This document shows, piece by piece, positions 1 through 64,000 of a stretch of 64,000 bases of DNA (the first letter of the stretch is position 1; each line of letters begins with the position of its first letter). Both the position numbers and the translations under genes were made by a program. The stretch is from Podarcis vaucheri. Lineage: Eukaryota. The notes under the pieces are model-generated. The model made no database searches. It saw nothing but the letters and a program-made list of their open reading frames with translations, and had not been told where the DNA came from. Where the stretch lies: the NCBI GenBank assembly GCA_965113315.1, contig OZ220365.1, one strand, 5' to 3'.

Positions 1-490
1 TCATGAGTGATATTCTGAATACCACTGGGTGGGTCATTAAGTGTAGATTAGTTGCTAAAGCTTTCGTGTCTTGACCTCTTGAGCTTGTGAAGAGTTTTTC
101 TGAGAAGATGGCTGTGCTGCATTTAGTTGTGCTCTGGCTTGGCTTCGTGTATAGGGGCGAGCTGTGGTTTTGTGCCTTGTGCCAGCCAGATCTGTGTAGG
201 GATTGCAGGGGGGTGCAGCATCCGGAGGTGCCACTCCATCCAGTAGCCAAACTATAGTGGCACCTCCGGATGCTGCACCCCCCTGCAATCCCTACACAGA
301 TCTGGCTGGCACAAGGCACAAAACCACAGCTCGCCCCTATACACGAAGCCAAGCCAGAGCACAACTAAATGCAGCACAGCCATCTTCTCAGAAAAACTCT
401 TCACAAGCTCAAGAGGTCAAGACACGAAAGCTTTAGCAACTAATCTACACTTAATGACCCACCCAGTGGTATTCAGAATATCACTCATGA
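1..490. repeat. Perfect long inverted repeat (arms 1-235 and 256-490, 20-nt spacer); probably continues left of the window
   Basis: 1-10 tcatgagtga is the reverse complement of 481-490 tcactcatga, and the arms match through ...gtgccact / agtggcac...; mirror-image ORFs 55..288(-) and 203..436(+). Confidence 0.97.
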
Positions 491-6323: not shown

Positions 6324-6514
6324 TACAGGTAGGTAGCCGTGTTGGTCTGCCGTAGTCAAAACAAAATTTAAAAAATCCTTCCAGTAACACCTTAGAGACC
6401 AACTAAGTTAGTTATTGCTTTGAGCTTCCATGTGCATGCACACAAAAGCTCATACCAATAACTAACTTAGTTGGTCTCTAAGGTGCTACTGGAAGGATTT
6501 TTTTTATTTTGTTT
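6324..6514. mobile_element. Fold-back remnant of a Penelope/Neptune-type pLTR (two inverted tails)
   Basis: Arms at about 6358-6428 and 6445-6514 are near-perfect reverse complements around the palindrome tgtgcatgcaca (6431-6442); tacaggtaggtagccgtgttggtctg terminus resembles reptile PLE ends. Confidence 0.72.
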
Positions 6515-17606: not shown

Positions 17607-17988
17607 GTAAAAGGTAAAAAAGGTAAAGGACCCCTGGACCATTAAGTCCAGTCAAAGGCAACTATGGCGTGTGGCACTCATCTTCCTTTCAGGTCAAGGG
17701 AGCTAGTGTTTGGCCACAGACAGCTTTCTGGGTCATGTGGCCAGCATGACTAAACCGCTTCTGGTGCAACGGAACACTGTGATGGAAACCAGAGCGCACA
17801 GAAACACTGTTTACCATCCCGCCGCAGTGTTACCTATTTATCTACTTGCACTGGTGTGCTTTCGAACTGCCAGGTTGTCAGGAGCTGGGACAGAGCAATG
17901 GGAATTCACCCTGTTGCAAGGTTTTGAATCACTGACCTTCTGATTGGCAAGCCCAAGAGGGTCAGTGGTTTAGACTACAGCGCCACCC
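17607..17988 (-). mobile_element. Sauria SINE
   Basis: aaaggt tail repeats, tacctatttatctacttgcac core, tRNA-like head. Confidence 0.9.
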
Positions 17989-21002: not shown

Positions 21003-22232
21003 TCATGTAGAGTTCTCAAGCACATGTATACATTAATGGGTGCTCATAGGTCACCCCTTTGAACCTTCCACCCAATGTATGAAGATATTGGGTATGTTGT
21101 CTGGATGTGGGGAAGCTAAATCCCTGAAGTTGCCTAAGGTGGGGTCATTTTCTGAATTCACATCATGAGCATGAACTACGATTTTGCCACTCAGCATGAA
21201 CCTTTTTAAAGTAGATTAAATTAGTGATGTGAGATTTATTCTCAGAATGAATTATTCAGACAACTCACTTGCCGTGTTTGGGATGCAATCTGTGCTGAAA
21301 ACTAAAATGGCCGGTCATGTAACCTGACCCTAAAAATGTTACAAGAGAGCTGTGTGCTGAAAGTGCATTGGTTGACAGATGCCCTTAAGATGCCCTAGAA
21401 GTGGTTTCTGGGAAAAACCTTGACCCCCATGAGAACACTATTATTATTAACCCCTCGTGGATGAGAGTCCCCAGCAAATCATTCTACGATTAGATAGCTG
21501 TTGTAGTAGAAAGTCAGAGGTGTTCCCTGGCTTCCCGTAATAACAGGCACAGACACTTACTGCAAGAACTTAATCATTTATTTTAATATAAAGCACAATG
21601 GAGGCCTAGAGACTGAGACCCAGAGAGCCTGCCATCACAGACAACCACCAGAGACTCTTCTTCCCATGTAGCCTCTGGAAGGCAGGTGGCCTCTCCTATA
21701 GTTATTAAAGTTCACTTTCCACAGGAGTTTCCACAAATCCTTTTGCTGTTCTTCGGTTTGTGTGCACATGTGCATGGATTCCCCTCGATCAATGGACAGC
21801 ACAATGCAGCATGATGGCTATAACTTGAGCAACTGATGCCTTGGGGTGCAATCTCAAACCTAATGCCCTGCAAGGTTTAACATAGTGGAAGAACCACTGT
21901 AAATCAACAGCCCTGCTGAGCATGATGACCAAGGCAGAAGGTTGCAGCCTGGACTGAGGCCATGTGATGGCTGTAGCTTGGGATCCAACAGACCTTGAGT
22001 CAGCTCAGCCCAGCTCACTCTTGGAACACCATATTTGGGGGGTTTCTGCTGGCTGCTGCTGGCAGGGATCACTCCAGCAGCACTTCCACTCAATCATTTG
22101 GCAGATGGAAAGGGAAGTTCCATGCTGGCAGAGTGATGCTGACACCACTAGACAGGCAGAAACCAGCAAAGGTCAACAGGGCTGGGTGAAAGGACACATT
22201 TGCCCAATTAAGCCCACCCTACTCTGTCCAGT

Positions 22233-22583
22233 GGGACGCAGGTGGCACTGTGGGTTAAACCACAGAGCCTAGGGCTTGCCGATCAGAAGGTTGGCTGTTC
22301 AAAACCCTGCAACGGGGTGAGCTCCCGTTGCTCGGTCCCTGCTCCTGCCAACCTAGCAGTTCGAAAGCATGTCAAAGTGCAAGTAGATAAATAGGTACCA
22401 CTCCAGCGGGAAGGTAAACGGCATTTCCATGCGCTGCTCTGGTTCGCCAGAAGCGGCTTAGTCATGCTGGCCACATGACCTGGAAGCTGTATGCCAGCTC
22501 CCTCGGCCAATAAAGCGAGATGAGCGCCGCAACCCCAGAGTCACGACTGGAGCTAATGGTCAGGGGTCCCTTTACCTTACCTT
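22233..22583 (+). mobile_element. Sauria SINE, full length
   Basis: TSD tactctgtccagtg at 22220-22233 and 22584-22597; canonical head and (ACCTTT) tail. Confidence 0.94.
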
Positions 22584-35966: not shown

Positions 35967-36317
35967 AAGGTAAAAGGACCCCTGACCATTAGGTCCAGTC
36001 GTGGCCGACTCTGGGGTTGCTGCACTCATCTTGCTTTACTGGCCGAGGGAGCCGGCGTACAGCTTCCGGCTCATGTGGCCAGCATGACTAAGCCACTTCT
36101 GGCGAACCAGAGCAGCACACGGAAACGCCATTTACCTTCCCGCCAGAGGGGTACCTATTTATCTACTTGCACTTAGACGTGCTTTCGAACTGCTAGGTTG
36201 GCAGGAGCAGGGGCCGAGCAACAGGAGCCCACCCCGTTGTGGGGATTCGAACCGCCGACCTTCTGATTGGCAAGTCCTAAGCTCTGTGGTTTAACCCACA
36301 GCGCCACCCGAGTCCCA
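35967..36317 (-). mobile_element. Sauria SINE, full length
   Basis: TSD taacctggaggta at 35954-35966 and 36318-36330. Confidence 0.94.
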
Positions 36318-47515: not shown

Positions 47516-47902
47516 AAAGGTAAAGGTAAAGGTAAATGACCCCTGGACAGTTGAGTCCAGTCAAAGGGGACTACGAGGTGCGGTGCTCATCTCACTTCAG
47601 GCCAAGGGAGCAGACGTTTGTCCACAGACAGCTTTTGAGGTCATTTGGCCAGCAGGACTAAACCGCTTCTGGTGCAATGGAACACCATGACGGAAGCCAG
47701 AGTGCACGGAAACGCCGTTTACCTTCCCACCACAACAGTACCTATTTATCTACTTGCACTAGTATGCTTTAGAACTGCTAGGTTGGCAGAAGCTGGGACA
47801 GAGCAATGGGAGTTCATCCCGTCACAGGGATTCAAGCTGTTGACCTTCTGATCAGCAAGCCCAAGAAGCTCAGTGGTTTAGACCACAGCACAACCCACGT
47901 CC
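47516..47902 (-). mobile_element. Sauria SINE
   Basis: (AAAGGT)3 tail, tacctatttatctacttgcac core. Confidence 0.9.
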
Positions 47903-48519
47903 TTTTACCATTATATGGTATATCCATGGAAGAATTGGACAAAACACTTACCTCTGCCTGAAATCCAATCTATGTCAGGATTCAAATTAAATAAGCAAAA
48001 ATGTAATTTCCACTAACATTACCACAAGATTTCTGAGGGAACACATGACTAGTGTGGGACCATGACCAGTGGCCAGGGATCTTGGGAACTGTAGGGCAAC
48101 AATGTCTAAAGGAGAACACATTGGCTATCCTGATGTATTCTATCACAAAGCACACATTTAAATATATATTTTATCTCAATGTATTCATTTCCAACCCATT
48201 TTATAATAAAAAGGCAATTTTCCTGCATGTTAGTTTTTGTTAAATCATAAGCTGTAACACAAAATTTAGGGAAGTGCAAAACCTGATGGATAATTATGTT
48301 GCCATCTGTATATTAGTCAGGGAGGTGCAAATTAGGTTAGCTCGTTTAAGAATGCAAACCATGGAAAAGTCTTCCGCATCCCTGAAGAAAAATACACAAA
48401 CATACCTTGATCTGTAGTTCTGAAGATTAATCCTTATTTACAGCCAAGAAATAAATTAACAGTCACCAGGTCAAGTACTTCTGTTTCTGAAGTAAACTAT
48501 TAAAACAGCAGGTAAATGG

Positions 48520-61358: not shown

Positions 61359-61756
61359 TCATTTAAAAACTTCAACCTTGGGTCCTTGATGTTGGTTTCC
61401 CCTTCTACGCTGTCCAGCGGTACCCATAAGGACAGACAGAATGGGAAAATGTCCAGCAATGGAAGTCAGTTTCTGCACAGTTTATGCCACACTTGCCAGC
61501 ACAGAACTTTGTGTTTATCACTATGCACCCTAAATTAAAACAAACTTCACAGGAAAAGCTGCATTTGTATTTGCAGAACCTTTTTAATGCTCTGAATGTG
61601 TATATATTAATGTGGAAGAAGAGGAAATTAATTTGACATAAATCAGATAACAAAACAAACAGCGATTTACCAAGTTCACAAGAAATCACATTATAATGAT
61701 CTTTCAGTAAGCAAATTCTCACTTGGAAGTAATTACATGCAATCCTTATGTAGAAT

Positions 61757-62512
61757 TGTCAGGGGTTCAGGAGCAGAGGCGAGGGCAAGGGAGGAAACAG
61801 AGAGCGAGGGGGAGGAGGCAGAAGAAAGGATGAGTGACGACGACGACCCGAGATCTCCGAGTCTGTCCAGTGAATCAGAAGATTCACAAAGAGGAGCACC
61901 AGTGGCAAGGGCAAGGGGGGAGACTAGGGGGACACCCCAGGAAGAAAGAGCCAGAGGGGACTCAGAGGGGAGCAGTTGGAGATCGGGACCTACGTCACCG
62001 CCAGAGAGTAGGGAAGAGGAAGAGCGCCTGGGAACTAGCGCTGGCAGCTCACAACAGGAGGGAGGGCACGAGTCAGGAGTGGCCACACCTTCATCGGGGA
62101 GCGAAGTGACGGTTAGACGGAAAGTGGAAGGTTGGGCGCGCGCGCCAAGTTCAAATGCACAGGAAGGTGGCGCAGTAGGCAGCCCGGAAAGAGAGCCAGG
62201 TCCTAAAGCCCGGCGCAAGGAGACAGGGGAGTCAGGGGGGTCAGCGTCAGAAGAATCCCGGAAGGGAGAGACCCAGGGGGGCAGAGGGACCCAGAGGAGA
62301 ACTGTCAGGCGGAAAAGGTGGAGCAGGGCTAGGATATTAAGTTGGTGCGCAAGGGGCGGAGACTCAGAAGGAGCTTCGCCGACCTAAGCATAAGGCGTAG
62401 GGTTGCACGCAGCAGCTCAAGAATGGAGACTGTAACTCAATAAAGACTTTTAATCAACAACCGCTGGCTAGCGTGATCCTCTGTGAGCTAGGATCTGGAA
62501 GTAACCCTGACA
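61757..62512 (+). repeat. 5' LTR (756 bp)
   Basis: TGTCAGGG...CCCTGACA termini; TATA-like TATTAA at 62335-62340; AATAAA at 62439-62444. Confidence 0.92.
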
Positions 62513-62514
62513 GT

Positions 62515-62525
62515 AAGCTCCTTCT
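62515..62525 (+). promoter_or_regulatory. Self-priming primer-binding site (Tf1/sushi type)
   Basis: aagctccttct is the exact reverse complement of LTR 62366-62376 agaaggagctt; no TGG tRNA-type PBS after the LTR. Confidence 0.85.
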
Positions 62526-62606
62526 CTTCAAATTGTGGACATCCACGACCTCGCGGAGAGGAGGGAAAGCGGGTGCCTACAAGAAAGCTCACGAACGGTA
62601 GACAAT

Positions 62607-63683
62607 ATGACGGCCGAACAGCAAATAACGGAACTCAGAGACGCGGTTTCACGACTGACTGCCGAGGCGGTGGCGTCCAGGAAGAGAGAGGAGGACGCAG
62701 CGGCCGCCTACAGGGATCTCCAGGTCAGGTTGGACGTGCTTACGAAGCAGGGGCAACAGACACCCAAATCAGAGGGGATTGGGTTGGGGAGACGCACAGG
62801 CAGTCTGGTCTCGCACTTCGATGGGAATTTGCAACAGTACCCCAATTTTAGAGCAGACGTAATGTGTGCACTACAACTACTGCACAAAGACTTTAGAGAT
62901 GAACAAGAGAAAGTGGGGTTCATCATGTCCCATTTGCATGGAGACGCTAAAGCATGGCTGCGCAATTTGTGGAGGGATAAGGATCCTGCGCTCCAAAATG
63001 CGGACGCCTTTATTAAAGCGATGGATGGCTGTTTTTTATCAAGCATTGACGTGGATCTTGCCCGAAGGGAGGTGCACGGACTAAGACAAGGGAGGGCCAG
63101 CGTACGGCAATATCATGCCCGCTTTTTCGCTTTGGTCAGTGCCCTGGAATGGGACAGAGATTCGGCTCCCGTCAGAGACCTTTTTTGGGAGGGCTTGAAC
63201 AGCTCGGTGAAAGATGAGATTGCGAGGGGGGAGAGACCCCGGACCACGCAGGAGATCGTTCAGAGGGCGCTGGCGGTGGGAGTGCGGCTGGAAGAACGTC
63301 CGTGGAGCAGGGACGAAGGGCGCAGCGGGCGCGAACCAGCCAGGGGCTCCTCCTTCCTTCCCAGAGAAGCAGCGCGTGCGCAATCCACGCCCCCAACAGG
63401 GGGAGGGGTGGAACCGATGGAGGTTGGGAGTGCAAGGGCTCAGTCAGCAGCCAGAGCCCTAGCACCGGCAGCAGTGAAAGCGAAGCCTCCTAGAGGGAAC
63501 AGGAAGTGTTACATCTGCGAGGATCCAGGCCATTTGGCGAAAGAGTGTCCCCGGAGGCTCCACAAGCACACTGCAGCCTCAGCAATGGTGACTGCAGCAA
63601 CGCAGCAAGGAGAACCACAGCAGGGAAACGACGATGTCTGGCTGGAAGAGGAGGCACTGGGGCCCAGCCAGACGTGTCAGTGA
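62607..63683 (+). CDS. gag: Retrotransposon Gag (PEG10/RTL-like capsid plus CCHC zinc knuckle)
   Basis: First ATG at 62607; N-terminal coiled-coil-like segment; FDGNLQQYPNF, KVGFIMSHLHGDAKAW, LRQGRASVRQYHARF, CYICEDPGHLAKEC. Confidence 0.93.
   Translation: MTAEQQITELRDAVSRLTAEAVASRKREEDAAAAYRDLQVRLDVLTKQGQQTPKSEGIGLGRRTGSLVSHFDGNLQQYPNFRADVMCALQLLHKDFRDEQEKVGFIMSHLHGDAKAWLRNLWRDKDPALQNADAFIKAMDGCFLSSIDVDLARREVHGLRQGRASVRQYHARFFALVSALEWDRDSAPVRDLFWEGLNSSVKDEIARGERPRTTQEIVQRALAVGVRLEERPWSRDEGRSGREPARGSSFLPREAARAQSTPPTGGGVEPMEVGSARAQSAARALAPAAVKAKPPRGNRKCYICEDPGHLAKECPRRLHKHTAASAMVTAATQQGEPQQGNDDVWLEEEALGPSQTCQ
63623..63682 (+). promoter_or_regulatory. -1 programmed ribosomal frameshift signal (G GGA AAC plus pseudoknot)
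   Basis: Slippery heptamer at 63623-63629 in the correct phase, 6-nt spacer, stem 63636-63645/63664-63673, second stem 63655-63659/63678-63682. Confidence 0.88.
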
Positions 63684-64000
63684 AGCAGTCCCCAGAGATT
63701 TTACCGCCCATGGACCCCCTCCCGCCCAAGCCAGTAGTGAGGCTCACCGCATCGCTCCAGCTACCCAATGGAATCACCATGGACGTGCCAATCACCGTCG
63801 ACTCGGGAAGCAATGCAGACTTCATAGGGCAGGACTTTGTCGACCGGCACGCTATACAGTTGCTGCCTGCCGCGCTGCCACTGCAGGTTGTCACGGTGGA
63901 TGGCAGGGAGCTGTTAGGGGGGCAAGTGGTGAAGCAGACGCCACCTATGGTGCTGCGGCTTGGAAATCACAAGGAGATTATCAGCTTCAACGTCACTCAA
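63623..64000 (+). CDS. pol: Pol N-terminus (aspartic protease), -1 frame, partial
   Basis: 126 open codons to the window end: ...MDVPITVDSGSNADFIGQDFVDRHAIQLLP...VVTVDGRELLGG...; DSG active site at 63800-63808. Confidence 0.92.

Follow-up and report, generated by a model that had tools for sequence, protein, structure and literature searches.

What primes reverse transcription of the retrotransposon that begins close to the end of the 64,000-nucleotide stretch of DNA analysed here (hereafter the window)? A sequence-only reading of this locus had proposed that the element dispenses with tRNA and is primed by the first 11 nucleotides (nt) of its own RNA, folded back onto the primer-binding site (PBS). 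This proposal is now supported by covariation of the two pairing segments, by a partial comparison with host tRNAs, and by footprints preserved in genomic copies. We put the probability at roughly 90% that this young Gypsy element, of apparent Tf1/sushi type, primes with the first 11 nt of its own RNA and not with a tRNA.

A complete and young Ty3/Gypsy element

The element is a complete, recently active and young Ty3/Gypsy LTR retrotransposon of 6,563 bp, flanked by a 5-bp AGAAT duplication (Table 1). Its second LTR lies beyond the window (L031:6065-6820) and differs from the first at 1 of 756 positions. The pol gene occupies the -1 frame relative to gag and has the domain order PR-RT-RH-IN, and the best match of Gag to a solved structure is PEG10 (E 2e-4). 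A chromodomain profile (PF00385) matches at the integrase end with E 8.5e-4 and 19.6 bits, under the 25.1 cut-off, although it is the sole family match and lies at the expected place. The subfamily of the window's element comprises 509 LTRs matched by sequence pattern. Partial homologues with names from Podarcis lilfordi agree with its earlier description as a lizard element.

Table 1. Features of the window, with positions counted from its first nucleotide
Feature	Position	Strand	Remarks
Perfect 235-nt inverted repeat	1-490		20 nt between arms; fold-back element or assembly artefact
Palindrome, 78-nt arms	6359-6514		90% complementary, no loop
Dispersed 300-nt repeats	17619-17987, 22232-22542, 36007-36317, 47528-47906
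Target-site duplication AGAAT, 5' copy	61752-61756	+	5 bp; 3' copy outside window
5' LTR, TGTCAGG...CCTGACA	61757-62512	+	756 bp (TG...CA); LTR pair comparison
Open frame across U3, TATTAA and primer	61758-62387	+	continues pol frame in 3' LTR; dN/dS ~0.2 between families
Pol tail, loci examined	61758-62387 (window); L031:5748-6695; L034; L115; L122	+ (in window)	frame analysis
TATA-like TATTAA	62335-62340	+	31 nt upstream of primer; doubles as coding frame
Predicted self-primer, RNA nt 1-11	62366-62376	+	inferred main start 62366 and RNase H cut 62376/62377
Small hairpin past cut site	62383-62395	+	3 bp in this copy versus 4 bp in sister families; pairs covary
R strand of 8-bp helix with U5 end	62399-62406	+	U5-IR-like, adjoins PBS; two-sided changes in 4/8 pairs
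Polyadenylation signal AATAAA	62439-62444	+	sequence
U5 hairpin, 6 bp	62475-62495	+	covaries
U5 strand of 8-bp helix	62501-62508	+	partner of 62399-62406; covariation
PBS, without TGG	62515-62525	+	complement of 62366-62376
C (inferred cap copy) and 3 multi-allelic positions (inferred untemplated additions)	62526-62529	+	copy comparison
gag: Retrotrans_gag, DUF4939, CCHC knuckle (PF00098)	62607-63683	+	profile matches; best solved-structure match PEG10
Slippery site GGGAAAC, stem behind	63623-63629	+	predicted -1 frameshift into pol
Start of pol frame (protease)	63494-64000	+	RT, RNase H, integrase and weak chromodomain follow outside window

The dispersed 300-nt repeats of the window are, we presume, akin to Sauria SINEs, which they resemble. 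Copies of the element and its relatives occur in a variety of genomic contexts. Several lie inside TTAGGG arrays (L003, L011-L014, L026, L116, L206, L207, L213, L222), and this telomere-repeat context was found at 6 of 30 loci in one sample and at 0 of 42 flanks in another, which might reflect either a preference or sampling. Tandem elements with a common LTR, together with elements that are nested or sit 5 nt apart, occur among L284-L286, L119, L032/L133 and L217-L220.

An 11-nt complement between the LTR and the PBS

The sequence-only reading had placed the PBS at 62515-62525, 2 nt past the LTR, and its exact complement at 62366-62376, 31 nt after the beginning of TATTAA at 62335; all of these coordinates and distances are correct. 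The upstream segment reads AGAAGGAGCTT and occurs once in the window, its pairing with the PBS cannot be extended by one base on either side, and the spacer between LTR and PBS is the dinucleotide GT. By itself, the match in the window is modest and suggestive only. When the LTR was dinucleotide-shuffled 20,000 times and a complement to any of five PBS offsets was accepted anywhere in it, 239 shuffles (1.2%) carried one of 11 nt. The purine-rich composition of the LTR and the pyrimidine-rich one of the PBS account for this rate. Likewise, the folding energy of the 200-nt leader is ordinary (z -1.25), with 25 of 200 shuffles folding equally well. The strong evidence comes instead from other copies and other families.

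Primer and PBS covary across copies and families

Related families were picked from the same genome by homologous Gag and by DUF4939, and pairs were sought without bias by accepting any complement of at least 9 nt with its start 0-4 nt past a CA that lies upstream of gag. In a family at ~60% Gag identity, this search recovered a primer/PBS pair in 28 of 30 loci. It also did so in 27 of 30 loci (L085-L114, many of them near-copies on one contig) of a family at ~31% Gag identity, for which the LTR end was inferred from local sequence and no second LTR was used. The pair in this distant Gypsy family is 10 nt long, and a GATAAA box lies ~30 nt upstream.

In the window's own family, 70 junctions were examined in genome order and the primer was located in 68 of them; in every one of these 68, nt 4 of the primer is matched by its partner in the PBS (23 A-T and 45 C-G pairs). 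One copy, L300, carries a private change on both the primer and the PBS side. The sequence-only reading had anticipated that the two 11-mers would covary across related families, and this is what the genome holds: nine distinct primer/PBS pairs are complementary, and 124 of 127 junctions are either fully paired (98) or mismatched at the nt 1 pair alone (26), the other 3 having one inner mismatch. These junctions were de-duplicated (with loci L001-L034 and one non-PBS row excluded), yet they come from related copies that are not independent events and so are not 127 independent tests; moreover, the search patterns behind this count, behind L300 and behind the G-after-PBS copies described below fixed 6 of the 11 primer bases and left only positions 4-8 free. 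Both complementarity and covariation are direct observations, made on the copies themselves.

The structures surrounding the primer also covary. Among 22 diverse sequences drawn from 78 distinct ones, 12 of 29 pairs in four helices changed on both sides, a count that none of 500 shuffles reached and that compares with 1-2 for slid controls. Furthermore, RNAalifold predicted the same helices unprompted. In the helix that joins R with the U5 end just upstream of the PBS (62399-62406/62501-62508), 4 of 8 pairs show such two-sided changes. Two of the three helices of Tf1 are present here, and both covary. For the third helix of the Tf1 'pretzel', in which the leader downstream of the PBS pairs with the LTR, no conserved duplex was found among the 22 sequences; a search against shuffled leaders, which short helices would escape, gave p<0.05 in 3 of 22 and p=0.64 for the window's subfamily.

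Chance, which did yield a match somewhere in the LTR in 1.2% of shuffles, has almost no prospect of explaining a pairing that keeps a fixed position and undergoes compensated changes in families down to ~31% Gag identity.

A PBS that is hard to assign to a tRNA

The longest tRNA match to the PBS is 6 nt among 27 distinct tRNAs of 9 isotypes from the same genome, an incomplete set, and the PBS has no TGG. Over this set, the comparison with host tRNAs that the sequence-only reading had proposed went in its favor. The PBS exists as nine sequences, each tracking its LTR, a pattern that a tRNA would not readily explain.

A host tRNA half or another small RNA might still be the primer, in which case the fold-back would be a regulatory structure that hides the PBS. 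Copia lineages do use half-tRNA priming (PMC6317226), and the comparison set was limited to the isotypes given above. However, we judge such priming very improbable: the nine PBS sequences follow the LTR copy, one of them being private to a single copy, and a tRNA would leave unexplained the footprints at both ends of the primer that are described below.

Bases after the PBS point to capped RNA starts

If self-priming operates, the copies may record where the RNA begins. A C lies directly 3' of the PBS in 124 of the 127 junctions, though the base preceding the primer is C or T. Such a C would be expected if the primer were copied as far as a capped 5' end, since reverse transcriptase (RT) can copy a cap as C. 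Tf1 reportedly retains its primer. If the primer stays on the minus strand here as well, plus-strand synthesis would copy it to its 5' end and so rewrite the PBS.

Departures from the usual junction are consistent with other starts. The last PBS base in 126 intact junctions is T in 99, C in 18 and A in 8, and the C in place of T would fit a start one base later. Five copies have a G after the PBS, and in all five the pairing reaches as far as nt -1, -2 or -3, with a C as the next base, as would be expected for earlier starts; this final C differs from the family's usual base in two of the five and is the same in three. Multi-allelic positions also concentrate here: four of the five found in the first 100 nt past the LTR of 45 copies fall at PBS positions 11-15, and in 33 elements compared over 5,052 nt, PBS+2 and +3 account for two of five. 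The RT of Tf1 has been described as capable of strong untemplated synthesis and of transfer on 2-nt overlaps (PMC3035444).

The C and the variable bases are seen directly in the copies, and from them we infer a main RNA start at 62366, with minor starts predicted at +2 and at -1 to -3. The sequence-only reading had claimed to predict the start to the nucleotide. Its main position agrees with the copy footprints, whereas the minor starts blur the claim of a single one. Its anchor, TATTAA, fared less well, for although the distance is exact the motif is weak, lies within conserved codons, and is TCTTAA in one sister family. We rejected the conservation of TATTAA as independent support for the start because the pol frame in U3 runs through it.

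A different origin for the same 11-mer also deserves consideration, namely that the primer comes from the 3' copy of R or from a longer transcript that is cut internally. Covariation cannot discriminate between these sources, since the sequence is present in both LTRs, and TATTAA is a weak anchor for a 5' end. The start footprint, in contrast, favors a primer taken from the capped 5' end over one taken from the 3' R copy: pairing breaks off abruptly at nt 1, the next base is C in 124 of 127 junctions, and the copies of shorter and longer primers likewise end in C. In addition, the deletion junctions described below indicate that minus-strand DNA stops at nt 12 and not at nt 1, which requires that the 5' end be cut there. 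We thus hold an origin in the 3' R copy or in a longer transcript to be improbable.

Recurrent LTR deletions meet at the predicted cut site

Minus strong-stop DNA runs to nt 1 when an element is primed by a tRNA. Tf1 RNA, by comparison, is reported to be cleaved between bases 11 and 12 (PMC7175516), and therefore its minus strong-stop DNA would end at nt 12. A probable trace of such an end is found in sister family B (L123-L134, L195-L222), where 58 LTRs, as against 2,788 intact ones, carry a 166-bp deletion that joins U3 to nt 12 across a 5-nt overlap and removes TATTAA and the primer. Both LTRs of the deleted elements are affected, all 17 of the 17 paired deleted elements checked have a target duplication of their own, and the frames are mostly open; three of the deleted copies represent one duplicated block.

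Foreign bases precede nt 12 in 48 LTRs, nt 1 in none and nt 22 in 1, these being the three positions that our junction search probed, in families B and B2. A 5-nt match in U3 is available for 56 R/U5 positions, nt 1 among them. Four of the 48 LTRs form a second deletion class that uses a different U3 site and derives from two insertions (L330 and L331). Their LTRs are 197 bp long and join U3 position ~60 to RNA nt 12, so that nt 12 is kept and nt 11 is lost, and the base at nt 11 is a different one in the three intact relatives checked. The two insertions have different target duplications and 22 differences between them.

The deleted copies might have arisen in another way. They could be a helper-dependent subfamily of single origin that spreads by borrowing primer or strong-stop DNA from intact copies, or they could stem from a source element whose 3' LTR was deleted. 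It is true that ~29 elements have one common junction, with both LTRs deleted, open frames and target duplications of their own, and that 13 of 23 deleted copies fall in one weakly supported branch together with one intact copy. However, a single clade of deleted copies is rejected (p-AU 2e-9), and at least 5 label changes are forced, in a test of 23 deleted and 13 intact copies (one mixed element excluded) whose tree is blurred by recombination between co-packaged RNAs. Three U3 haplotypes that lie no more than 70 nt from the junction are common to deleted and intact copies, and the second deletion reaches the same nt 12 from another U3 site. Among the elements fetched, none has an intact 5' LTR and a deleted 3' LTR. 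A helper-dependent or single-source origin is, in our view, unlikely.

Recurrent mis-transfer of minus-strand DNA would be the simplest reading of the nt 12 deletions, with recombination or helper-dependent spread as less probable alternatives. The junctions themselves are plainly visible in the copies, and the cut that they suggest is predicted at 62376/62377. To place it we rely solely on where the junction falls and on the second class of deletion. Variable bases at the junction were considered as a further marker of the cut site, but intact U3 turned out to show the CC/CT difference too, which weakened this use. Untemplated additions on the minus strand might be expected to leave point changes at primer nt 10-11; we found no excess of such changes in the window's subfamily (0 of 100 among the LTRs listed), and the sister family had 4 of 100 among its listed LTRs (2 elements).

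Some further characteristics of these copies were noted. All 30 deleted copies have T as the final PBS base, compared with 99 of 126 intact ones, and G follows the PBS in 3 of 30 deleted versus 2 of 126 intact copies. Element L197, with a deleted 5' LTR, an intact 3' LTR and no target duplication, is probably a product of recombination after insertion.

A pol tail encoded in U3

The same part of the LTR appears to have a coding function. Beyond the chromodomain, the pol frame extends across the polypurine tract, all of U3, TATTAA and the primer, and reaches a stop ~20 nt into R. This tail is open in six subfamilies, where indels preserve the frame, and its dN/dS of ~0.2, with 79 of 146 differences at third positions, indicates a tail of ~200 residues under purifying selection. 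The window's own copy has a stop within the tail, after the chromodomain. No Pfam match was obtained for the tail, and the five homologues found include none with a function.

A proposed model for self-priming and its possible cost

Our proposal is that RNA synthesis would begin mainly at 62366, and that nt 1-11 would then fold onto the PBS, held there by the R/U5 helix. RNase H would cut after nt 11, as in Tf1, and minus-strand DNA would end at nt 12 because of this cut. This end may sometimes land on a look-alike site in U3, and such mis-landing would delete the promoter and the primer from both LTRs of the progeny. With the primer retained, plus-strand synthesis would rewrite the PBS, copy the cap as C, and add untemplated bases.

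More broadly, we think it fairly probable that the copies record vertebrate self-priming at single-base resolution. According to this interpretation, the bases after the PBS log capped starts, and ~2% of the LTRs of one family carry a recurrent promoter-and-primer deletion at the RNase H cut site, which would be a built-in cost of self-inactivation. The same stretch of LTR would code for the conserved 200-residue pol tail, so that promoter, primer and protein overlap.

Comparison with known self-priming elements

The mechanism itself is already known and is to be expected in this group of elements; the copy-level footprints are the new part. Tf1 and Tf2 of Schizosaccharomyces pombe are self-primed, and Tj1, Tosmo1-3 and Tcry1 have been proposed to be so (PMC7175516, PMC10085805, PMC4600332). 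Self-priming with a pretzel structure has been proposed for the vertebrate Tf1/sushi group, with credit to Butler et al. 2001 (PMC10085805, PMC6317226), and self-priming is described as common to the Tf1/sushi group including vertebrates (PMC10085805, PMC6317226, PMC4600332). The sequence-only reading had likewise given as background that Tf1 primes with its first 11 nt and that the same was proposed for sushi-group vertebrate elements. In the literature searched, with the primary Tf1/sushi papers lying outside the search, we found no account of copy-level footprints, recurrent nt 12 deletions, or a pol tail encoded in U3.

Fission yeast provides the proof of self-priming; for vertebrates it has, in the literature examined, so far only been proposed from complementarity. 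In the large, young vertebrate family described here, each end of the primer now has support from covariation and from two independent kinds of footprint, and the RNA ends are predicted exactly, with a cap at 62366 and a monophosphate at 62377. The footprint approach requires an assembly alone, and it is applicable to other candidate self-priming lineages. An element without a tRNA site would also be expected to escape silencing by 3' tRNA fragments, as we infer from PMC7472051.

Like Tf1 as described in PMC7175516, PMC10085805 and PMC4600332, this element has a PBS shortly past the LTR that is complementary to an 11-nt primer at the predicted RNA 5' end, with a predicted cut after nt 11, and a helix of R with the U5 end upstream of the PBS that corresponds to part of the 'pretzel' (PMC10085805). 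It also has a 5-bp target duplication and, to judge from a match below the cut-off, a candidate chromodomain-like integrase tail. Unlike Tf1, which has a single ORF and no CCHC (PMC10085805), it has a CCHC knuckle in Gag and a pol gene that reads in the -1 frame and continues through the 3' LTR, and our search recovered no third pretzel helix. Self-priming of Tf1 was established by experiments, whereas the evidence here comes from genome copies.

Self-priming, the -1 frame and CCHC are features that the element would have in common with the vertebrate sushi group (sushi-ichi, Amn-ichi/ni/san; GyDB V-clade), and the termini of its LTRs agree with the Sushi motifs TGTYANR and CNTNACA given in PMC3601003. 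Membership in the Tf1/sushi group is likely, as judged by features and not by a tree with named members, these features being the self-primer, one flanking helix, CCHC, the -1 frame, the PEG10-like Gag and the LTR ends. The resemblance extends to the domesticated sushi-like mammalian genes PEG10 and RTL1, in that the best match of Gag is PEG10 and DUF4939 is present, and the slippery heptamer is the same as that of PEG10 (PMC10570562). PEG10 and RTL1 are immobile genes without LTRs, whereas the element described here is complete and recently active.
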